From a plasmid, in sequence record NZ_CP019209.1: a DNA stretch of 64,000 nt, one strand, 5' to 3'. Both the position numbers and the translations under genes were made by a program. The notes under the pieces are model-generated. The model saw only the letters and a list, made by a program, of their open reading frames with translations. It had not been told where the DNA came from and made no database searches. Of the stretch, positions 8,896-20,533 are shown piece by piece. Numbering within the stretch: the first letter of the stretch is position 1; each line of letters opens with the position of its first letter.

Positions 8896-9193
8896 GTGAA
8901 AAAGTTTAAAAAGAAAATATATTTAGGATTGGTTGTTGGGGTGAGTATGTTTGGGTTCATGGCTCATACTAAACAAGTAACTGCAGATACTAACCAAAAA
9001 GAAAGGATTATGAGCCAATTAGATGACTCTCAAATAAGTATGTACCCAATGAGCTAATTGTCAGTTTAAAGGCTACACAAAGAATTTCAACAGAGAAAAA
9101 TAAACCGCAAAATTTATTGGGTGTAAAAGTTATGGTGGAAAAAGATTTGACTCTTAGGACAAATGAAAGCGATTGTAATAAGCGAGATCAAGG
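8896..9193 (+). pseudogene. Secreted protein gene fragment (signal peptide MKKFKKKIYLGLVVGVSMFGFMA), frameshifted near 9040 and truncated by ISS1-like insertion
   Basis: GTG start with RBS GGAGGAG; stop at 9055 but a shifted frame continues VPNELIVSLKATQRISTEKN... up to IS inverted repeat at 9194. Confidence 0.4.
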
Positions 9194-10006
9194 GTTCTGT
9201 TGCAAAGTTTTCCAAAAAATCTATTTTAGTGTAAAATTGAGAAAAAAGACAGAGAGGACAGAGTAATGAATCATTTTAAAGGCAAACAATTCAAAAAAGA
9301 CGTCATTATTGTCGCTGTTGGTTACTACCTGCGTTACAATCTAAGCTATCGTGAAGTTCAGGAATTGTTATATGATCGTGGAATAAATGTTTGTCATACT
9401 ACGATTTATCGTTGGGTACAAGAGTACAGCAAAGTCCTCTATTATCTTTGGAAGAAGAAAAATAGACAATCCTTCTATTCATGGAAAATGGACGAAACCT
9501 ATATCAAAATTAAGGGACGTTGGCATTATCTTTATCGTGCAATTGATGCGGACGGCTTAACCTTAGATATCTGGTTACGAAAGAAACGGGATACGCAAGC
9601 AGCCTATGCTTTCTTAAAACGACTCCATAAACAGTTTGGTGAGCCGAAAGCAATTGTGACCGATAAAGCACCTTCTCTTGGCTCCGCCTTTAGAAAGTTA
9701 CAGAGTGTGGGTTTATATACTAAGACAGAGCACCGAACTGTGAAGTATCTTAACAATTTAATAGAACAAGACCATCGACCTATTAAACGACGAAATAAAT
9801 TTTATCAAAGTCTCCGTACAGCCTCTTCCACGATTAAGGGCATGGAGACCATTCGAGGAATATATAAAAAGAACCGAAGAAATGGAACGCTCTTCGGCTT
9901 TTCGGTGTCTACTGAAATCAAGGTATTAATGGGAGTAACAGCCTAAGATATTTGGAGTTCAGAGAGGGCGCGTTTGATTTTCAAACTTCGCAACAGAACC
10001 ATGTTG
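9194..10006 (+). mobile_element. IS6-family insertion sequence, ISS1-like (intact)
   Basis: Terminal IRs GGTTCTGTTGCAAAGTTT (9194) and RC at 9988-10006; 226-aa transposase. Confidence 0.85.
9266..9946 (+). CDS. IS6-family (ISS1-like) transposase
   Basis: MNHFKGKQFKKDVIIVAVGYYLRYNLSYREVQELLYDRGINVCHTTIYRW...; DDE core. Confidence 0.9.
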   Translation: MNHFKGKQFKKDVIIVAVGYYLRYNLSYREVQELLYDRGINVCHTTIYRWVQEYSKVLYYLWKKKNRQSFYSWKMDETYIKIKGRWHYLYRAIDADGLTLDIWLRKKRDTQAAYAFLKRLHKQFGEPKAIVTDKAPSLGSAFRKLQSVGLYTKTEHRTVKYLNNLIEQDHRPIKRRNKFYQSLRTASSTIKGMETIRGIYKKNRRNGTLFGFSVSTEIKVLMGVTA

Positions 10007-10392
10007 CCAATATCGATTTATTTGATTCAGAACACATTCAAACTGAAGATAATAGTGACAACTCAACTCTAAATAGTCATATATCAATCATATTTGGAGA
10101 ATCATTATATACTGGGAAATCATATAGAGATGTATTTACGCAATTAGTTTCTAATTTAGTATTATCCGCAGAGTTGGATAAATTGATTCCTTTAATGAGT
10201 CCTAATGAACCCACTACAGTACAAATACTTGGCAATAGAGAACATATATCAGCTAAAGGGGCGAAGTTGACTAAACCAATAGAACTAACTAAATACCATA
10301 TGTATGTTAATTTTTCAAAAATAGGCTTATACAATCAAATCAAAAAATTAGCTGAACTGACTGGGAAAAAAGTTATATTTGAAAGGTGGTAA
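10007..10392 (+). CDS. Hypothetical protein, 5' truncated by IS insertion (ORF 9952..10392; first 19 codons are IS-derived)
   Basis: ORF reads out of IS right end; ends 6 bp before small tyrosine recombinase gene. Confidence 0.35.
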
Positions 10393-10397
10393 TTCAT

Positions 10398-10988
10398 ATG
10401 GTTCAACAGATTGTTTTACCTATCAAAGATTCAAATATTTTAAAAATGGTTCAAGATACACTCCTTGATAGCTTTCATGCTGGACGTCGTAACTATACGA
10501 TATTCCAAGTGGGGAAAGCCACTCTCTTAAGGGTAAGTGATGTCATGAAACTTAAAAAATCAGATGTCTTTAATCCTGATGGAACGGTTAAACAAACCGC
10601 TTTTATTCATGATCAAAAAACAGGAAAAGCGAATACGTTATATTTGAAACCAGTACAACAAGATTTATTAATTTATCATGATTGGCTGGTCCAACAAAAT
10701 CTTAATTCTGAGTGGTTGTTTCCCTCAACGACTCACCCAGACCGTCACATCACCGAGAAGCAATTTTATAAGGTCATGGCACGTGTTGGTGATCTTTTAG
10801 GAATCAACTATCTAGGGACGCATACCATGCGTAAAACAGGCGCTTATCGTGTTTATACGCAGTCGAATTATAATATTGGTTTAGTCATGCATTTATTAAA
10901 CCATTCAAGCGAAGCCATGACTTTAACCTATCTTGGGTTAGATCAAGCCAGTCGAGAAACGATGTTAGACCAAATAGATTTTGGATAA
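10398..10988 (+). CDS. Small tyrosine recombinase (phage-integrase family catalytic domain, ~197 aa)
   Basis: GTHTMRKTGAYRV (HxxR) and LTYLG (catalytic Tyr region); RBS AAAGGTGG upstream; paralog of 16219..16836. Confidence 0.7.
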   Translation: MVQQIVLPIKDSNILKMVQDTLLDSFHAGRRNYTIFQVGKATLLRVSDVMKLKKSDVFNPDGTVKQTAFIHDQKTGKANTLYLKPVQQDLLIYHDWLVQQNLNSEWLFPSTTHPDRHITEKQFYKVMARVGDLLGINYLGTHTMRKTGAYRVYTQSNYNIGLVMHLLNHSSEAMTLTYLGLDQASRETMLDQIDFG

Positions 10989-11030
10989 TGTTTTTTATTT
11001 AAAAAGAGGGACAATCATTATGTTAAAAAA

Positions 11031-11487
11031 TTAGGTTCTGTTGCAAAGTTTTCCAAAAAATCTATTTTAGTTTAAAATTGAGAAAAAAGACAGAGAGGAC
11101 AGAGTAATGAATCATTTTGGTGAGCCGAAAGCAATTGTGACCGATAAAGCACCTTCTCTTGGCTCCGCCTTTAGAAAGTTACAGAGTGTGGGTTTATATA
11201 CTAAGACAGAGCACCGAACTGTGAAGTATCTTAACAATTTAATAGAACAAGACCATCGACCTATTAAACGACGGAATAAATTTTATCAAAGTCTCCGTAC
11301 AGTCTCTTCCACGATTAAGGGCATGGAGACCATTCGAGGAATATATAAAAAGAACCGAAGAAATGGAACGCTCTTCGGCTTTTCGGTGTCTACTGAAATC
11401 AAGGTATTAATGGGAATAACAGCCTAAGATATTTGGAGTTCAGAGAGGGCGCGTTTGATTTTCAAACTTCGCAACAGAACCAAATAG
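11031..11487 (+). mobile_element. Internally deleted ISS1-like IS6 derivative (MITE-like, 457 bp) retaining both terminal IRs
   Basis: Left IR at 11031, right IR ending 11487; in-frame deletion joining codon 4 to ~codon 125 (MNHF|GEPKAIV) at TTT microhomology. Confidence 0.8.
11107..11427 (+). pseudogene. Truncated IS6 transposase (in-frame internal deletion, 106 aa, lacks N-terminal region)
   Basis: Comparison with 9266..9946. Confidence 0.8.
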
Positions 11488-11735
11488 TCTATACAGTAGA
11501 AGATGCCGATGAGCAAAATATCACATTACCTGTATTCAATTATTGGGGAACAGTTGTGAAAGTAAATGGGAAAAAGAGCACTATAGAAAATGACAATGGT
11601 TTAGTGTCTATTAAAGGTACGGGAAAAAGAACTATAGTTGAGGTTTCATCTACGTATCCAACTACGATGATTCTATCTTTATTAATTAGTTCAATAACTT
11701 TTATATTCTTATTTACACGTTATTTAATAAGATGA
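11488..11735 (+). pseudogene. C-terminal fragment of a membrane-anchored protein (hydrophobic tail ILSLLISSITFIFLF + RYLIR)
   Basis: ORF 11433..11735 reads out of IS right end; only region after 11487 is non-IS. Confidence 0.3.
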
Positions 11736-11740
11736 TAGCG

Positions 11741-13064
11741 TAAAATATTTTGTGTAAATAGATATTTAGGGTAGAAAAAAAGAAAGTCCATTCTGTAAAA
11801 TTAAAGTTACCACAACCAAAATTTTATAGGAGGACTTTCTCATGCCCAATTTTACTACAGAAATTATGGAAACACTAATCAATAAAGGTGATTTAGATGA
11901 ATTATTTCGATGTCATTTAGAATTAGCTGTTAATTCATTATTGCAGGCTGAATTAACAGCTTTTCTTGATTATGAAAAATATGATCGTGCTGGGTTCAAT
12001 TCAGGTAATTCCCGTAATGGGAATTATTCACGTTCATTCAGAACAGAGTATGGAGAATTAAATTTGGTGATTCCTAGAGATAGAAATGGTAAGTTTTCTC
12101 AACAAACTTTACCTGCTTATAAAAGAACCAATGACTCTTTAGAAACCACTATTATTCAGCTATTTCAAAAAGGAATTACTATGTCTGAAATCTCTGAATT
12201 GATTGAAAAAATGTACGGGCATCACTATACGCCACAAACCATTTCAAATATGACTAAAATAGTTTCTGAAGATATTATTGCCTTTAAAGAAAGGTCCTTA
12301 GAATCCAGATACTCTGTCATTTTTATGGATGCTACTCACATTCCTTTAAAAAGACAAACTGTTTCAAAAGAAGCAGTTTATATTGTAATTGGCATTCGAT
12401 TAGATGGAACCAAAGAGGTTCTTGGGTTTAGTCTTGCTCCAACTGAATCTGCTTATGTTTGGAAAGAGATTCTTCAAGACCTAAAAGACCGTGGTTTAAA
12501 AGAGGTTTTATCAGTCGTAACTGATGGTTTAAGTGGCATTAACGATAGTATTCATAGTGTTTATCCAAATGCTCAATTTCAACAATGTTGTGTCCATATA
12601 TCTAGAAATATCGCTCATAAGGTTCGTGTTAGTGATCGACAAGAAATCTGTAGCGATTTCAAATTAGTTTATCAAGCAAGTTCAAAAGAAGAAGCAAATA
12701 ATCAAATAAGGTTTATGATAGATAAATGGAAAAAGCAGTATCCACGAGTGGTTAAATTGCTCATGAATCCTGCTATATTAACCTTTTATAATTTCCCTCC
12801 GTCAATCAGAAGAACTATTTATTCAACTAATTTGATTGAAGGTTTTAACAAACAATTAAAGAAATATACCAAAAGAAAAGAGCAATTTCCTAATGAAGAA
12901 TCTCTGGAGAGATTTCTAGTATCTCAATTCAACAACTATAATCAAAAGTTTCTATGCCGAGTTCATAAAGGTTTTAAAGAAATACATGATACATTAGAAT
13001 CAATGTTTTAACTTGATCAACAGAATGGGCTTTTCCATTTACACATAATTCTTGACGCAACCAA
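11741..13064 (+). mobile_element. IS256-family insertion sequence (element 1), boundaries approximate
   Basis: IR GTAAAATATTTTGTGTAAATAG at left, TTTACACATAATTCTTGACGC at right; 389-aa Mutator-type transposase. Confidence 0.75.
11842..13011 (+). CDS. IS256-family transposase
   Basis: Strong similarity to copies at 19245 and 60029 (MxxFTTEIxxTLxNKGDLxELFR...); DDE motifs. Confidence 0.85.
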   Translation: MPNFTTEIMETLINKGDLDELFRCHLELAVNSLLQAELTAFLDYEKYDRAGFNSGNSRNGNYSRSFRTEYGELNLVIPRDRNGKFSQQTLPAYKRTNDSLETTIIQLFQKGITMSEISELIEKMYGHHYTPQTISNMTKIVSEDIIAFKERSLESRYSVIFMDATHIPLKRQTVSKEAVYIVIGIRLDGTKEVLGFSLAPTESAYVWKEILQDLKDRGLKEVLSVVTDGLSGINDSIHSVYPNAQFQQCCVHISRNIAHKVRVSDRQEICSDFKLVYQASSKEEANNQIRFMIDKWKKQYPRVVKLLMNPAILTFYNFPPSIRRTIYSTNLIEGFNKQLKKYTKRKEQFPNEESLERFLVSQFNNYNQKFLCRVHKGFKEIHDTLESMF

Positions 13065-13069
13065 TAAGG

Positions 13070-14395
13070 ATAAAGTCCATATAATTGTGTAAAAGATAAA
13101 AGGCCATGTAACAGCCCTTTTACGGTACAATGTTTTTAACCACAAAAACATACCCAGGAGGACGTTACATGACCCAAGTACATTTTACACTGAACAACGA
13201 AGAGGTTCAAAGTATTATTGAATATTCGGTAAAAGATGAAGTTTCTAAAAATATTTTGACCACTGTTTTCAACCAATTGATGGAAAATCAACGAACAGAA
13301 TATATTCAAGCCGATGACTATGAACGTTCAGAAAGTCGTCAGAGTCAAAGAAATGGCTATTATGAGCGAGACTTTACGACTCGTGTGGGCACACTCGAGT
13401 TAAAAGTGCCTAGAACACGTGATGGTGAATTTTCACCGACGGTGTTTGAGCATTATCAGCGAAATGAAAAGGCACTGCTCGCTTCAATGCTTGAGATGTA
13501 TGTTTCAGGCGTTTCGACACGTAAAGTTTCAAAGATTGTTGAAGAGCTATGTGGAAAATCGGTATCGAAATCTTTTGTTTCTAGCCTGACTGAGCAGTTA
13601 GACCCGATGGTCAACGAATGGCAGAACCGTTCACTCTCAGGTACGAGTTATCCTTATCTGATGACTGATGTTCTCTACATAAAAGTCCGTGAGGACCATC
13701 GAGTGCTTTCTAAAAGCTGCCATATTGCGATCGGGATAACAGAAGGTGGTGATCGTGAAATCATTGGCTTCATGATCCAAAATGAAGAAAGTGATGACAC
13801 ATGGTCCATCTTCTTTGAATACTTAAAAGAACGCGGTCTACAGGGGACAGAACTCATCATTTCTGATGCCCATAAAGGCCTAGTGTCTGCAATTCGTAAG
13901 TCATTTACCAACGTAAGTTGGCAGAGATGCCAGGTCCATTTTTTAAGAAACATCTTCAGTTCCATTCCAAAAAAGAATTCAAAACCGTTTAGAGAAGCAG
14001 TAAAAGCGATCTTTAAGTTTACGGATATTGAACTCGCTCGAACAGCTAAGAATGCCTTAGTCGGTGAATATATCGACCAGTCTAAATATACAAAAGCTTG
14101 CGAAACATTGGATAATGGCTTCGAAGATGCCTTTCAATACACGGTTATCGGAAATGGTCACAATCGGCTAAAAAGCACCAACCTTCTTGAACGACTGAAC
14201 CAGGAAGTCCGCAGAAGAGAAAAGATTATTCGGATTTTTCCCAACCGAACGTCTGCCAATCGATTAATTGGAGCTGTCCTTATGGACCTTCATGACGAAT
14301 GGCTCAGTTCTACAAGAAAATATATTAAGTTTGATCAATGAGAGACCGGTAAAACATTGTATAGTATTTTACACAGGATTATGGACTTGACTTTT
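13070..14395 (+). mobile_element. IS256 (canonical-like), directly abutting IS256-family element 1
   Basis: Left IR GATAAAGTCCATATAATTGTGTAAAA at 13070; transposase near-identical to S. aureus/Enterococcus IS256 Tnp from memory (MTQVHFTL...SWQRCQVHFLRN). Confidence 0.85.
13169..14341 (+). CDS. IS256 transposase (ORF track 13130..14341; ATG with RBS GGAGG at 13169)
   Basis: Translation matches IS256 Tnp along full length. Confidence 0.9.
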   Translation: MTQVHFTLNNEEVQSIIEYSVKDEVSKNILTTVFNQLMENQRTEYIQADDYERSESRQSQRNGYYERDFTTRVGTLELKVPRTRDGEFSPTVFEHYQRNEKALLASMLEMYVSGVSTRKVSKIVEELCGKSVSKSFVSSLTEQLDPMVNEWQNRSLSGTSYPYLMTDVLYIKVREDHRVLSKSCHIAIGITEGGDREIIGFMIQNEESDDTWSIFFEYLKERGLQGTELIISDAHKGLVSAIRKSFTNVSWQRCQVHFLRNIFSSIPKKNSKPFREAVKAIFKFTDIELARTAKNALVGEYIDQSKYTKACETLDNGFEDAFQYTVIGNGHNRLKSTNLLERLNQEVRRREKIIRIFPNRTSANRLIGAVLMDLHDEWLSSTRKYIKFDQ

Positions 14396-14559
14396 GGACC
14401 TAGCAAACAATATTAATGAGGTCATTAAATCTTATTATCTTTAGTGATATAACGAAATATCTACACAGACAAAATTATGATCTTGCGTAAAGTTATAAAA
14501 TATTAATAAAAATCGTAAATTTCAAGTTTAAGTTAGCCACTACAGGTAACTCATTTGTT

Positions 14560-15850
14560 TGATACCGTAACTGCCTCGTTATTCTAAATCAGTGAGGCCT
14601 TGATAATGAACTGAGGTATGATAGTCTTCAGACGATTCTGGCCCCAGGCCAGCTTTCCAGACATGAAGCCATGTCCCGAGTGAGGATCGTTATCAAGGAA
14701 TAATGGGTCAAGCCACCAACCGTTCTTGCTTGAATGCCTGGACGAATGTATCATGTGGTGTCGCATAACCCAAAATTTTCCGCGGGTAATCGTTCATCCA
14801 ACGCTGGATCCGCAAAATCTGGTTCTCGCTCACCTCACTAATCGGGCTTCCCTTGGGGACGAAACGGCGAATTAATTTGTGCTGGTTTTCGCTCGTCCCA
14901 CGCTCCCAAGAAGCATAGGGGTGGCTGAAATAGACGTCAGCTACATCTTGCAGAGCATCGTGTAGCCCAGAAAACTCCGAGCCATTGTCGGATGTAACGG
15001 TCTTAAATAATTGATCGAAGTTAGCGCCAGCCCGTTCTCTTAGCTGTTGAACCGCTTGGTCCACCGATTCGGTGTCCTTCCCGTTCAACTTTAGGATGAC
15101 TTCAAAGCGTGTCTGCCGTTCAGCCAGCGTCAGCAGCACGGCATCCGACTTGGTCTTGTTTCCCACTACCGTGTCGATTTCCCAATGACCGAACGTTTCC
15201 CGTGTTTCAACTTCTTTAGGGCGTTCTTCAATTGACGTCCCGAGAACACGCTTGTTGGGACGGTGTCCTGGGCGGACCGCTTTGATTTTACGGGACAGTT
15301 TTTCAAGCAAGTCCATGTTCTTTGTTCGCATGATTCCGCGGTCAATCCATTGATAAAGAGCGGTTGTGCCAGGAATGATGGCACAATCGAACAGCTCGTG
15401 TTTTCTGGCAAATCCGACCACGACGTCCGGCGACCATTTTTCATTTAACATTTTGTCATCTGCCCAATCAATGAAGGCATTTGTGTTCGCCCATTTGGGG
15501 CGTCTGCCACAGTTCAGTCGTTGCTTTTCATAGAAGGCCTGTCCTGCATCAGCGTCATAAACAGAATAGTAGGTGTCATACACTTTTCCATTTTGCGTTT
15601 GGCGTTTTAACTGGGTGATGGTTCCGCGATCAATCTCATTGTTTATGGTTTGCGGAACACGTCCCAGCACTTTGGCAACCTGACGGTTGGAATAGCCTTC
15701 CTTTTTCAGGATAGCGATTTGGCAACGTTCTGAGTAGGAAAGATGTTTTCCCTTGCGTGAAACTGTGTTATCATGGGTTTGCGTCATGTGAATTCATCCT
15801 TGTCTATTGAGAGTTGTGGTAACTTCAATATAACATGGAATTCACGTGGC
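14560..15850 (-). mobile_element. IS30-family insertion sequence, higher GC than surroundings; boundaries approximate
   Basis: 359-aa transposase with N-terminal HTH and DDE blocks GHWEIDTV / SDNGSEF / ENQHKLIRRF. Confidence 0.7.
14708..15787 (-). CDS. IS30-family transposase
   Basis: See above. Confidence 0.85.
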   Translation of the reverse strand: MTQTHDNTVSRKGKHLSYSERCQIAILKKEGYSNRQVAKVLGRVPQTINNEIDRGTITQLKRQTQNGKVYDTYYSVYDADAGQAFYEKQRLNCGRRPKWANTNAFIDWADDKMLNEKWSPDVVVGFARKHELFDCAIIPGTTALYQWIDRGIMRTKNMDLLEKLSRKIKAVRPGHRPNKRVLGTSIEERPKEVETRETFGHWEIDTVVGNKTKSDAVLLTLAERQTRFEVILKLNGKDTESVDQAVQQLRERAGANFDQLFKTVTSDNGSEFSGLHDALQDVADVYFSHPYASWERGTSENQHKLIRRFVPKGSPISEVSENQILRIQRWMNDYPRKILGYATPHDTFVQAFKQERLVA

Positions 15851-16218
15851 GTTTTTTTTATTTTAAATGGCTAAGTTCATTATAAAATCCGCCTATTAAT
15901 AAAAATATTTTATTAATGAAAAGCTTGGTAGCACGGTTATTCATATGCTAATTTATTTCACTTTATAGTAAGGGGAGTTCTTAGTATATTGTTCAAACTT
16001 AAATTTCATATAATTTAATTATGTAAATTAGCTATTCTAAGAACTTCTACGGATAACTGCCCGTCTAAAATTTAAATAAGAGCTTAGAATCTTCATATAA
16101 GTAAGGTTAATTTTTTTGTACAAAAAAGTCGGAATATTCTGAGTTACTGAAATGATATAAAATCATAAACTAAATCCCTTGATTTTATTGACTTTCAAAA
16201 GTTTATATATATAAGTTA

Positions 16219-16836
16219 ATGATTATGGTAAAATATATATATAATCATGAACTCAGAATATTTTTAAGAAGGGAAACAATAGTGAGCTATAATGTACAAC
16301 CGTTAAGGACAAATGAAGAGATACAAGATTTTCAGTTTTGGCTAAGAAGAACAAGTAATCCAGAAAGAGATAGTTTTTTATTTTTGTTTGGAATCAATAA
16401 TGGGTTACGTATGTCAGATATTATAGGATTAAAAGTTGGAGACATACGAGGTAAAAGTAAGCCCATTATTGTTGAACATAAAACAGGTAAGCGAAAACCG
16501 ATTTTTATAGATAATTTGAGAGAAGAGATTTTATTATATACTGAAGGTAAAGAAGAAAATGATTGGTTATTTCCAAGTCGGCAACAAGGTCGACATATAA
16601 CAAGGGATCGTGTCTATCAGATATATGCAGATATAGCAGAAAAATTAGGAAGAGATGATATAGGAACACATACATTAAGAAAAACTTTTGGGTACCACTA
16701 CTACAAGAAAACTAGAGACATTGCTACCTTAATGTTTATTTTTAATCATAGCTCGCAAGCAATTACAAAAAGGTACATTGGTATAACTGAAGATGAAATA
16801 GGGGCATCGTTACGTGGTTTTAAATTGGGAGGCTAA
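16219..16836 (+). CDS. Small tyrosine recombinase (paralog of 10398..10988)
   Basis: GTHTLRKTFGYHYY (HxxR), ITKRYIGI (Tyr region); 205 aa. Confidence 0.7.
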   Translation: MIMVKYIYNHELRIFLRRETIVSYNVQPLRTNEEIQDFQFWLRRTSNPERDSFLFLFGINNGLRMSDIIGLKVGDIRGKSKPIIVEHKTGKRKPIFIDNLREEILLYTEGKEENDWLFPSRQQGRHITRDRVYQIYADIAEKLGRDDIGTHTLRKTFGYHYYKKTRDIATLMFIFNHSSQAITKRYIGITEDEIGASLRGFKLGG

Positions 16837-16841
16837 TTGAG

Positions 16842-16871
16842 ATATTAGGATATATTTTTTGTGTATAATGA
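16842..16871 (+). promoter_or_regulatory. Putative promoter: TTGAGA -35 and extended -10 TGTGTATAAT upstream of AT-rich two-gene operon
   Basis: TTGAGATATTAGGATATATTTTTTGTGTATAAT read directly. Confidence 0.5.
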
Positions 16872-16891
16872 AAACTTAGAAGGTGAGATTA

Positions 16892-17644
16892 ATGAAGATA
16901 ACTGAATTTTCGGAAGTATTTAAAACGTTTAGTAACATTTACAATAGAATACCAGAGATAGAACAAAATGTTGTAGTTGATAATGATTATTATATAGAGA
17001 ATGATTTTAATAAACCAAGAAAATATGACAACCTATACAATTTTATACACAATAGAACAACAATAAATAACAACAGTAACACTCGAGTTTTGATTAATTC
17101 AGCATATTTTCATATTAAATATTTAAAGAAATATGAGTATGAAGAAGTTGTATTAGATTATGGGCTAAATAGACAGTCATTTTTAATTTATGCAATAAAT
17201 AACGGAAATTTGCCAAGTAATAAAAAGAACAAAATTATTGAAACATATGCCTATCTGGAGGGGGGATCTAAAAAACTAATTAAGTCATGTAATATAGAGT
17301 ATCAATTATCAGTAGGAGAAATTAAATGTGTTTTCGAAGAAGATTTAGAACTTGACTTAAAAAAAATTATTGCCAGCATTCATGATTATATAGGTTTGAT
17401 TTATAAAATTATTGAGGATCATAAACAAACTGAACTTAATATGTGCTATTTTGATAGAGAACAAGATTTTTTTTGTTATGGTGGAATGGGTGGAGGATCT
17501 ATTGTTCCAAAGATAAATTTAGTAGAGTTAGATGTAAATAATTACAGGGAATTATATGTTTTTAATAGTTTAGATTTTGAAATACCTATGAAACAGATGA
17601 AAAATATTGACATACATATACTGCCAAGTGAGTCGTGCCAATAG
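16892..17644 (+). CDS. Hypothetical protein (~251 aa), Asn-rich, extremely AT-rich gene, no recognisable domain
   Basis: ORF track 16883..17644; ATG at 16892 preceded by GAAGGTGAG RBS. Confidence 0.5.
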   Translation: MKITEFSEVFKTFSNIYNRIPEIEQNVVVDNDYYIENDFNKPRKYDNLYNFIHNRTTINNNSNTRVLINSAYFHIKYLKKYEYEEVVLDYGLNRQSFLIYAINNGNLPSNKKNKIIETYAYLEGGSKKLIKSCNIEYQLSVGEIKCVFEEDLELDLKKIIASIHDYIGLIYKIIEDHKQTELNMCYFDREQDFFCYGGMGGGSIVPKINLVELDVNNYRELYVFNSLDFEIPMKQMKNIDIHILPSESCQ

Positions 17645-17919
17645 AATATTCAATCGAATATTTTTACAAAGGTAAAAAAATAAAAAAATGTGACAAGTGT
17701 TTTGAATCAGCTGTGGTAAAGGTTCCTCAATTTAAACTAAATCCAGCTGCCTCGATACAATTTCAAGGACATGTATTTGATGTTTTAGCTAAAGATAACA
17801 TAAAAAAATACAAAAAAGGTAATATATTCCATATTGATATACAAATATCTTCTAATTTAGAAGATATAAAAAAAGCCTTTAAAATTAAAACAATTGGCAC
17901 TGCTTCTAATTTTAAATAA
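17635..17919 (+). CDS. Hypothetical small protein (94 aa; CxxC near N-terminus, His-rich middle), translationally coupled to upstream gene
   Basis: GTG start overlapping stop of upstream ORF by 10 nt. Confidence 0.4.
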   Translation: MPIEYSIEYFYKGKKIKKCDKCFESAVVKVPQFKLNPAASIQFQGHVFDVLAKDNIKKYKKGNIFHIDIQISSNLEDIKKAFKIKTIGTASNFK

Positions 17920-18068
17920 CAAAAAAATTACTAGATAATCTAAAAACAGGATGGCATTATGAGAACAATAACTAAACTTCCTATATCACATATTTTGTAA
18001 TTAGTGAAAAGCAAATTGACTACTATCATAAGTTAATGACTCTCATCTTAATATTTAAAATATATTCA

Positions 18069-19110
18069 CCCGTGGTGCTAGTTAATTTTAATATCCTAAA
18101 GAATATCTCAAAGTTCCTTCAAAACGTCGTTGTGCTCGACTTAATAGAGAACACTGTAAGCCAGTAATATGCTTTCAAATCTACTCTCTAGCCCTTTAAC
18201 AGAACGTGAGTTGAAATTTTGACAACCTAATTTTTCTAAGGAAGAAAAAACAGTCTCAACTGTTTTTCTTTGTTTTCCAAGTAAGCTGTGGTCTAGTTTT
18301 TCTGATTTATCCATGTTTTTACGTGGCGGAACGGATATAGTAATGCCCATAAGGGCAAGCTTTTCATGGATTTTATGGCTAATATATCCTTTGTTCCCTA
18401 GGATATTGGGAAGATTCGCTTCTTCCGATAAAGTCTCTAACACTTTCACGTCATGGACACCTGGATTCGTGATTGAGTAAGTAATCGGAAAGCCAGTCTT
18501 AGTAACGATCATATGAATTTTAAGACCATAAAAATAAGATTTTTTTGTTGAGTTATAGCCAACTTTGGTTATTTGATTCAATAGTTTTGCTTGTCTATTT
18601 CTAACTGGTTTACATAATGGACTAGGAAAACTATCTATAATTCCGACTAGTTCACCTTTGGTGAGCTTCTTGATGAAAAAGTATCGAATAATCTTGATAG
18701 TGTAAGCTAAGTTTGAACTTAAGCGAGTGAATCGACTCCTACTAGGAAAGTCACCATTAGGAAATAAGACGGAACAAACCGCTCTATACGTGGCTCTTTG
18801 GCTAGTATAGCCATTAATTATGCCCCATATAACACAAGCAATAATCACTGTATCGCGTTGCTTCAGTTGATCAGTATTTCTTCGGTTTTTAATCTTATCT
18901 GGTACACAATTGTGGTATATGTTAGAAACAGTTCTCATAATTTCCTTGAATGTTATAAAAGTATCTGTATAATGTTCAGTATATTTTGATGAACGCATAT
19001 GTAGTCCTCATTTCTTGGGAGTTTTGAGACTACTATATGCGTTTTTTTGTTGATTTACCAACATGTTTAGACATTTTCCTCTAGGAAAAAATTAACTAGC
19101 ACCACGGGTT
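18069..19110 (-). mobile_element. IS982-family insertion sequence (ISEfm1-like), copy A
   Basis: Terminal IRs ACCCGTGGTGCTAGTTAATTTT at 18069 and RC at ~19089-19110; near-identical to copy at 24758..25791. Confidence 0.8.
18141..18998 (-). CDS. IS982-family transposase (3' end altered by 2-bp insertion relative to copy B)
   Basis: 285 aa vs 302 aa in copy B; CTCTATTAA vs CTATTAA near 18150. Confidence 0.8.
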   Translation of the reverse strand: MRSSKYTEHYTDTFITFKEIMRTVSNIYHNCVPDKIKNRRNTDQLKQRDTVIIACVIWGIINGYTSQRATYRAVCSVLFPNGDFPSRSRFTRLSSNLAYTIKIIRYFFIKKLTKGELVGIIDSFPSPLCKPVRNRQAKLLNQITKVGYNSTKKSYFYGLKIHMIVTKTGFPITYSITNPGVHDVKVLETLSEEANLPNILGNKGYISHKIHEKLALMGITISVPPRKNMDKSEKLDHSLLGKQRKTVETVFSSLEKLGCQNFNSRSVKGLESRFESILLAYSVLY

Positions 19111-19150
19111 ATATTCATATTTTTCTATTTTATCTAAATGCGATTTTCAT

Positions 19151-20489
19151 GAGAGTGTAAAATATTTTGTGTAAATAGAAAAAAGGAAGTCCCTTCTGTA
19201 GAATAGAGTTACCACAACACATTCACAGAAAAGAGGACTTCCATATGAACGATTTTACTACAGAAATTCTAAAGACTCTAGCGAACAAAGGCGATTTGAA
19301 TGAATTATTCCGTGTCCATTTGGAAAAAGCTGTCAATACGCTTCTCAAAACGGAGTTAACGGCTTTCCTCGATTACGAAAAGTACGATCGCATTGGTTTT
19401 AACACGGGTAATTCTCGTAACGGCTCCTATGACCGTACGGTCAAGACCGAGTACGGGGAACTTCATCTCCAGATTCCGCGCGACCGCAACGGCGAGTTCA
19501 AGCAACAGACTGTTCCTGCTTATAGACGGACGAATGATACCTTAGAGGAGACCGTCATTCACCTCTTCCGAAAAGGTATTACCATGTCGGAAATCGCAGA
19601 CTTGATTGAGAAAATGTATGGGCATCACTACACGTCCCAAACCATGTCCAATATGACTAAATCATTTACGGAAGAAGTCACTTCATTTAAGGAACGTGAG
19701 CTTCATGACCGTTATGCCGCTATTTATATGGACGCAACCTATATCCCTTTAAAGCGGAAAACCGTCGCCAAGGAAGCTATTCATATCGCAGTTGGCATTC
19801 GCCCGGACGTATCAAAGGAAGTATTGAGCTATGCGATTGCACCGACTGAATCCATCACGATTTGGGAGGAAATTTTATTGGACCTTCAAGAGCGCGGTTT
19901 GAAAAATGTCCTCCTGTTCATCACGGATGGCTTAAAGGGGATGGTAGGAGCGATTAGTCGGTTCTATCCCTAAGCTCGTTTTCAACATTGTTGTGTACAC
20001 GTTTCCCGTAATATCAGTCACAAAGTGCGTGTCAATAATCGTAAGGAAGTCTGTGATGATTTTAAAATGGTGTATCAAGCCTCATCTAAAGAGGTGGCGT
20101 TGGAAGCACGTGGTGCTTTTGCGAAAAAATGGAAAACCAGTTATCCAAAAATGGTGGAATCGATCCTTTCGAACGATTACCTGCTCACTTTCTATGATTT
20201 CCCCTTGGCCATACGCAAGAGTATTTATTCTACGAACTTGATTGAATCCTTTAATAAGCAAATCAAGAAATACAGCCACCGCAAGGAACAGTTCCAAAAC
20301 GAAGAGTCGATGGAACGTTTCTTAGTCTCGTCTTTTGATACTTACAACCAAAAATTCCTAGGTCGCAGTCATAAAGGCTTTCAACAGGCCGAAGGCGAAC
20401 TTGAACAAATGCTGAGTCAACCGATGGAGAATTAGAAACGATCTACAGTAGGGAAGAACCATTTACACAAAATTATTGACGCTCCCAAA
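19151..20489 (+). mobile_element. IS256-family element 2 (decayed copy)
   Basis: Same terminal IRs as element 3 (GAGAGTGTAAAATATTTTGTGTAAAT / TTTACACAAAATTATTGACGCTCCCA). Confidence 0.75.
19245..20435 (+). pseudogene. IS256-family transposase, interrupted (stop at 19972 and frameshift; ORFs 19245..19973 and 20025..20435)
   Basis: N-terminal 140 aa ~identical to 60029..61207, then divergent and broken. Confidence 0.8.
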
Positions 20490-20533
20490 TGTTTGGATTT
20501 ACCTTATAGATATAAAAAGAAACAAATCATTCT

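Follow-up and report, generated by a model that had tools for sequence, protein, structure and literature searches.

An apparent two-gene operon behind a plasmid tyrosine recombinase is best explained as one gene broken by a one-nucleotide deletion

Introduction

Several described systems come close to the locus reported here, namely the pseudogenes of Enterococcus faecium megaplasmids disrupted by frameshifts or insertion sequences (IS), the single-gene abortive-infection (Abi) proteins of lactococcal type, superinfection-exclusion proteins, and recombinase-linked defence cargo. In Bacillota, open reading frames (ORFs) that share a transcript with a small serine recombinase often turn out to be defence genes, and this layout has been used to find new ones; tyrosine recombinases are not reliable markers of defence genes across phyla (PLoS Biol 2026, PMC13552941). 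Here, we analysed 64,000 nucleotides (nt) of plasmid DNA from record NZ_CP019209.1 (the window), in which positions 16892..17919 follow a small tyrosine recombinase gene. A reading made from the sequence only had taken this segment for a translationally coupled, AT-rich two-gene operon that looks like abortive-infection, addiction or defence modules. We found that it is very probably one gene broken by a 1-nt deletion rather than two genes, and this is the best explanation of the locus as a whole.

The outcome is mainly a correction, in that the apparent operon with a CxxC partner is an artefact of a frameshift. Its by-product is a defined protein family that is very rare, AT-rich and horizontally moving, with a confident predicted fold and no annotation.

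Results

On the plus strand, ORF A runs from ATG 16892 to TAG 17644 and encodes 250 amino acids (aa), one fewer than the approximate size first given, and ORF B runs from GTG 17635 to TAA 17919 and encodes 94 aa; both ORFs exist as had been described, with an overlap of 10 nt. A protein search with ORF A led to a 340-aa protein, P0002, whose 90%-identity cluster includes sequences named Enterococcus mundtii. It aligns without gaps to the two products, residues 1–250 to ORF A at 65% identity and residues 251–336 to ORF B at 66%. The full-length homologues (330–408 aa) hold both parts in a single ORF in 16 of 16 cases, and the two-ORF layout was seen in no homologue. In the closer relatives the protein runs uninterrupted over the junction as ...ILPSESCQIEYSIEYFYKGKK..., and the frame is continuous at this point in the homologues from E. 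mundtii, Vagococcus and metagenomes as well as in most E. faecium copies. The proposed translationally coupled operon is thus better read as one broken gene, being fused in all of these homologues and in an intact E. faecium allele.

Comparison of the DNA places the lesion precisely. The junction reads CCAAATAGAA in related plasmids and CCAATAGAA in the window and in NZ_CP083474.1; at its core, regions L006, L007, L009 and L010 have CCAAATAG, while the window and L008 have CCAATAG, so that the window lacks one A at 17640–17641, with AA where intact alleles have AAA. When one A is put back, a 342-aa ORF results that is a few residues away from two intact E. faecium proteins, P0075 (WP_262879702.1, found in 14 contigs by exact look-up) and P0076 (a V278 variant, found in one contig). 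A 342-aa ORF is likewise restored in L007 when ISEfm1 and one 10-bp target duplication are taken out. We compared the restored window gene with the E. mundtii gene in a single continuous frame and obtained a ratio of nonsynonymous to synonymous substitution rates of 0.16 overall (0.14 for part A, 0.21 for part B); therefore, both parts were once under purifying selection as one reading frame. The copy accordingly has intact orthologues (P0075, P0076 and P0002) and a defined 1-nt lesion at 17640–17641, and this lesion is derived.

The whole gene, 342 codons if intact and a member of an uncharacterised family, thus occupies 16892..17919. ORF A (16892..17644) holds codons 1–250 followed by the premature TAG, covering an N-terminal helix, a first beta-sandwich domain and about two-thirds of a second domain. 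ORF B (17635..17919) holds codons 251–342 in the -1 frame, with the last strands of the second domain and a C-terminal helical tail. Its frame opens only at 17632, which is 3 nt 5' of the GTG and exactly at the frameshift site, and no convincing ribosome-binding site was found ahead of GTG 17635; the GTG 'start' is a by-product of the frameshift.

The composition of the two products agrees in part with what had been said of them. ORF A is indeed rich in asparagine (10.8%). ORF B had been described as having a CxxC followed by a histidine-rich part; one CxxC is present, but the protein has only 2 histidines among 94 residues, is instead rich in lysine (19%) and shows no set of metal ligands. 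The CxxC is not conserved either, as only its second cysteine is kept in the four closest full-length relatives, where the first varies, and neither is found in distant ones. The low GC content that had suggested foreign origin was confirmed, at 25.4% for 16842..17919 versus 35.1% for the whole window. It is also a feature of the family, whose genes (25–29% GC) lie below their flanks in 10 of 11 loci, consistent with horizontal movement.

A 55-nt spacer (16837..16891, plus strand) separates the recombinase gene from ORF A and contains a good Shine-Dalgarno sequence, AAGGTGA, at 16880–16886. The promoter proposed for this spacer was borne out in its perfect -10 hexamer, TATAAT at 16864–16869, but not in its other parts: TTGAGA (16837–16842) lies 21 nt upstream, outside the 16–18 nt spacing of sigma-70 promoters, and TGTG abuts the hexamer, leaving no canonical TGn extended -10. 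A consensus promoter scan did not report the 16864–16869 site and found no canonical promoter in the spacer. Since no terminator was found in a scan of 15800..18200, including the interval between the recombinase and ORF A, co-transcription of the gene with the upstream recombinase is possible. No RNA family was found by an Rfam search of 15700..18300.

The family is very small: a sensitive profile search against 1.84 billion representatives returned only 32 clusters. Profile hidden Markov model searches with both ORFs and 16 family members gave nothing consistent in Pfam, NCBIfam, PHROGs and PADLOC, and no significant match in Pfam, NCBIfam or PADLOC for either ORF or any member. Weak matches to DUF4352, one member each (E 0.33 and 0.0035), agree only with an Ig-like fold. 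In PADLOC-DB 2.0, the window ORFs had no match and the 16 members had scattered single-member matches at E values of at least 0.002. The PDB sequence profile search gave nothing below E 0.05, and the four closest proteins had no relatives among GTDB species representatives or in IMG/VR. A tblastn search of a phage collection gave only a 33-residue match at chance level, and a literature search on the RefSeq protein accessions found no paper.

An AlphaFold2 model built from the 16 family sequences reached a predicted local distance difference test score (pLDDT) of 83 and a predicted template modelling score of 0.77, while a run with 4 sequences gave a pLDDT of 37. Domains were assigned from the secondary-structure listing of the model, which has an N-terminal helix, a beta-sandwich at about 20–152, a second beta-rich domain at about 165–292 and a short helical tail; a glycine-rich loop in the second domain (GGMGGG, 198–206) is modelled with low confidence. 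The strand at 249–259 spans the ORF A/B junction, and therefore the frameshift cuts a domain. Invariant or near-invariant columns in the 16 sequences are N60, N103, N104, V278 and P279, and the consensus also has GEI, GGxGGG and ILPxxSC motifs. In nine longer members, an N-terminal start rich in lysine and arginine leads into a strongly hydrophobic segment (maximum Kyte-Doolittle 19-residue mean 1.6–2.6); the window protein and its close relatives have no such segment (maximum 0.05–1.1).

The gene has decayed in many ways across enterococcal plasmids. The 2-kb region around it is 100% identical to E. faecium plasmids such as pHJP554-1 (NZ_CP083474.1) and about 99% identical to many other plasmids of 130–280 kb, including pDO3 of strain DO. 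The junction allele of the window was matched at 100% in six plasmid records only and the intact junction in 40 of the 40 records listed, so the window allele is a minority one, and in most related plasmids this gene is damaged in other ways. Among 141 plasmid records holding the gene, none had it intact. Most often, ISEfm1 has inserted and duplicated 10 bp (gene nt 500–509), leaving annotated fragments of 183 and 174 aa. Other breaks lie near gene nt 120, 663 and 780, some of them beside IS30-family transposases, and further lesions are a TT deletion at gene nt 576–577, a frameshift near codon 305 in E. lactis and, in E. hirae, the loss of DNA between about gene nt 112 and 582, after which an ORF of 180 aa remains. 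The 90%-identity cluster comprises 560 distinct sequences; those read are mostly fragments of 92–310 aa, together with the 250-aa ORF and the two intact 342-aa forms. In the plasmid records examined, the Prokaryotic Genome Annotation Pipeline (PGAP) calls the fragments two or more hypothetical proteins.

In most related plasmids (for example L006 and L007, NZ_CP017793.1 and NZ_LR135204.1), ISEfm1 interrupts the gene at nt 500–509, and in the window it lies 150 nt downstream; the locus looks like a repeated ISEfm1 target.

We identified the neighbours of intact relatives by Pfam and PADLOC matches. The membrane-anchored member P0029 lies on an element resembling an integrative and conjugative element (L024, 3890..9122), with AbiA (6e-146), a cyclase of the cyclic-oligonucleotide-based anti-phage signalling system (CBASS; 6e-206) and a two-transmembrane (2TM) effector (2e-131) directly upstream. 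Another relative has a type IV methyl-directed restriction enzyme (1e-272) and PDC-S07 on one side and type I CRISPR-Cas on the other, the Vagococcus fluvialis member is in an island with AbiH (5e-19), an M78/Fic protein and a serine recombinase, and a further one adjoins a GIY-YIG/Schlafen-type helicase (Nhi-like, weak at 7e-13) and a MazG-like gene. A gap of 8 nt separates the long form P0025 (L021, 8001..10610) from a downstream Exo_endo_phos (EEP) protein, and a DEDDh/RNase T exonuclease matching PADLOC PDC-S48 (5e-34) comes next; these may form a three-gene unit, the layout being seen in one locus only. Of the remaining contexts, one is the end of a prophage, after holin and lysin, and one is a small island with a 222-aa tyrosine recombinase. 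On the E. mundtii chromosome (L025/L026, 5783..8968), an LXG-EndoU toxin gene and four small ORFs including DUF2247 directly precede the intact family member and a bgl phosphotransferase system operon. Defence matches thus stand next to or within two genes of relatives in 5 of about 10 contexts, a small sample.

In L024, the order of the genes is an AbiA-type reverse transcriptase, a CBASS cyclase with an AGS-C domain and a 2TM/Sa_NUDIX effector, then a gap of 310 nt before P0029.

The small tyrosine recombinase directly upstream (16282..16836, plus strand) consists of the catalytic domain only and is intact. It ends at 16836 as had been described, but PGAP in several related plasmids annotates it as 184 aa from GTG 16282 (WP_002301108.1) rather than 205 aa, the length of the longest ORF, from ATG 16219. 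It matches PF00589 (E=2e-22, 80.1 bits against a cut-off of 27.1) and the PHROG 216 integrase (E=3e-54), and candidate catalytic residues R..K..HxxR..H..Y (GLRMSD, HKTGK, HTLRKT, NHSS, KRYIG) were picked by eye in the translation, without structural alignment. The gene is found directly 5' of the broken gene, annotated identically, in the five E. faecium plasmid regions fetched (WP_002301108.1, with an unnamed 555-nt equivalent in CP066213.1), and E. hirae has a 184-aa orthologue, 81% identical, in the same position (WP_010738090.1). It lies directly upstream in every enterococcal plasmid region examined, and the other family members do not have this neighbour. Conserved pairing of two ORFs next to small recombinases, which the sequence-only reading had led one to expect, was therefore not observed: no homologue is split in two, and the recombinase adjoins the gene only in Enterococcus plasmids. 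That the recombinase stays intact while its neighbour decays suggests a role independent of the neighbour, for which plasmid resolution and inversion are possibilities. A perfect 13-nt inverted repeat (AATATTCTGAGTT / AACTCAGAATATT, 16133..16145 and 16250..16262), within an imperfect one of 27 nt just upstream of GTG 16282, could be an operator or a recombinase-binding site.

Insertion sequences flank the segment on both sides, as had been pointed out, but they are later, independent insertions and do not form a composite element. ISEfm1 (IS982 family; 18068..19109, minus strand) follows the gene at a distance of about 150 nt; its 22-nt inverted repeats, at 18068–18089 and 19088–19109, are perfect, and the flanking DNA of this site is continuous in L007. 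An IS30-family element (about 14514..15893, minus strand; 49% GC) with a 359-aa ORF (14708..15787) lies about 390 nt upstream of GTG 16282 and is missing from NZ_CP083474.1, L007 and L009. Neither element is part of the unit, and plasmid comparison gives a native segment of about 15894..18067. A composite transposon made from the flanking elements was considered and rejected, as the two are of different families and a near-identical plasmid has no IS30 copy. Apart from this copy, NZ_CP083474.1 agrees with 15894..20000 at 99.9%, which makes the source plasmid closely related to that record but distinct from it.

More widely, 9000..20500 is an accumulation of insertion sequences (IS6 copies and fragments, two IS256-family genes, IS30 and ISEfm1) with short cargo islands between them, and it includes a split IS256-like gene at 19245..20435. 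A paralogous tyrosine recombinase of 200 aa (10386..10988) is 33% identical to the one at 16282. It had been said to be attached to an ORF with no assigned function, and ORF 9952..10392 does adjoin it; this ORF is what the IS6-family copy at 9266..9946 has left of a gene, namely its 3' part, and in other E. faecium plasmids that gene bears the annotation 'GIY-YIG nuclease family protein'. Read-through from the IS end supplies the first 16 residues of the ORF, MEFREGAFDFQTSQQN, which are also present in the ORF at 11433.

Discussion

Taken together, the copy in the window is an ordinary pseudogene allele of an uncharacterised, rare accessory gene. In the course of events that we propose, the gene would first have travelled on enterococcal plasmids as the cargo of a small tyrosine recombinase located in front of it, and the two may have been co-transcribed. 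Its intact protein is predicted to begin with a helix, which in the longer relatives is a true membrane anchor, and to continue with two Ig-like beta-sandwich domains and a short helical tail; it has no enzyme fold and would most likely act by binding something rather than by catalysis. After loss of one A, translation from ATG 16892 halts at codon 250, and the last 92 codons fall in the -1 frame, where they appear as a 94-aa ORF. Because the break cuts a beta-strand within beta-sandwich domain 2, neither fragment would be expected to fold alone, and the window copy is most likely dead.

A genuine translationally coupled abortive-infection or addiction module, in which the 250-aa protein acts with a 94-aa CxxC partner, would fit the 10-nt overlap, the low GC content, the adjoining recombinase and the two hypothetical proteins annotated by PGAP in six plasmids. 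It is nevertheless hardly credible, as the two parts are fused in every full-length homologue and in an intact allele of the same species, the frame of ORF B opens only at the indel without a convincing ribosome-binding site before its GTG, the CxxC is not conserved, and no toxin, antitoxin or Abi model was matched. We consider it very improbable, too, that the missing A is a homopolymer error of sequencing or assembly and that the gene is intact in the plasmid: long-read assemblies are prone to such errors, and the site is a short A-run in AT-rich DNA, but the run has just 3 nt, six complete plasmid records belonging to three accession series (sources given as China, sanies and urine isolates) share the allele, and the 250-aa and 94-aa products are recorded in exactly this form from 50 and 59 contigs. 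The split gene might also still work, through an active 250-aa fragment, -1 frameshifting or transcriptional slippage, or reassembly of the fragments. The persistence of the allele in several plasmids speaks for this, as do the ribosome-binding site and complete first domain kept by ORF A, yet it seems improbable, given a break inside a beta-strand, an A-run of 2–3 nt that is too short for efficient slippage, and the independent destructive lesions that dominate the plasmid population and argue that loss is tolerated. Programmed frameshifting was rejected, as there is no slippery heptamer of the form X XXY YYZ at CC AAT AG.

With the single broken gene as the preferred explanation, what the intact family does can be judged from the neighbourhoods of relatives only. 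These would suggest a part in conflict with phages or mobile elements, by defence or exclusion, and a role of this kind is plausible. The likeness to defence modules proposed earlier is thus kept for the intact relatives, some of which lie among anti-phage genes; its addiction (toxin–antitoxin) part is unsupported, with no toxin or antitoxin domain matched. A stronger version, in which the intact 330–408-aa family is an unrecognised single-gene, non-enzymatic system against phages or mobile elements that hospital plasmids of E. faecium lose repeatedly, is speculative, and we regard it as rather unlikely as a whole; such a system might bind a phage or envelope component, the conserved motifs being NNGN, GGxGGG and VPxY. 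Alternatively, the family may not be anti-phage and may instead supply an envelope or surface protein (an adhesin, or an exclusion factor of the element) or an immunity or accessory protein of polymorphic toxins that hitch-hikes in variable islands. This is a possible, if doubtful, account. The tandem Ig-like fold is common in surface proteins, the signal-anchor of the long forms, with its N-terminus rich in lysine and arginine, predicts an extracytoplasmic body, and the E. mundtii copy comes after an LXG-EndoU toxin gene and a series of small ORFs that resemble immunity genes, DUF2247 among them; on the other hand, a signal peptide or anchor is missing from the short forms, enterococcal and other, and five independent contexts lie next to or within two genes of phage-defence matches.

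Several points weigh against our view of a dead copy from a defence-related family. The 250-aa fragment may keep residual function, and the differences among E. faecium alleles (6–7 non-synonymous versus 1–2 synonymous) are inconclusive, being too few to prove relaxed selection. The defence role leans on about 10 neighbourhoods of a very small family, taken without a background statistic, and the family matches no PADLOC model. The chromosomal copy of E. mundtii adjoins a toxin/immunity array of the LXG-EndoU type and not phage-defence genes, and cellular location is inconsistent across the family, as the enterococcal short forms do not have the membrane anchor of the long ones.

Since E. faecium offers an intact allele (WP_262879702.1) as well as natural null alleles, the family lends itself to a clean phage-challenge experiment. 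Should it prove to be a defence gene, the fact that clinical E. faecium megaplasmids inactivate it repeatedly would bear on phage therapy.

Among known systems, the single-gene Abi proteins of lactococcal type (AbiH, AbiA) and other residents of defence islands resemble the family in being AT-rich, in residing on plasmids or mobile elements and in having no recognisable catalytic motif, and family members stand beside AbiH, beside AbiA and CBASS, or between a type IV restriction enzyme and CRISPR-Cas. Unlike them, the family matches no PADLOC Abi model and is predicted to be a tandem beta-sandwich rather than a nuclease, reverse transcriptase or other enzyme, and the window copy is broken. Superinfection-exclusion proteins (Sie2009 type, Ltp) share with the long forms an N-terminal anchor and a non-enzymatic nature, and one relative follows a prophage lysis cassette, but the family has no PHROG or Pfam match and its enterococcal forms have no anchor. 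Proteins of the Sie2009 type are also much smaller than the 330–408 aa of the family. The window protein is likewise without the anchor expected of a superinfection-exclusion membrane protein, and a prophage is the setting in only one of about 10 contexts. In fold, two-lobed beta-sandwich proteins of the arrestin or Spo0M type are among the closest known systems.

As in the recombinase-linked defence cargo of Bacillota, the gene here, on a mobile element of enterococci, follows a small recombinase on the same strand within 100 bp; it differs in that the recombinase here is a tyrosine recombinase and a link of this form is absent outside Enterococcus plasmids. The frameshifted or IS-disrupted pseudogenes of E. 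faecium megaplasmids are alike in their replicons, which PLSDB typing assigns to rep_cluster_893 (about 130–280 kb, including pDO3, NC_017963.1), and in having one gene struck independently in different lineages by ISEfm1, IS30-family elements and small indels. Within that class, the present locus has nothing unusual about it except its one special point, membership of a very rare, unannotated family.

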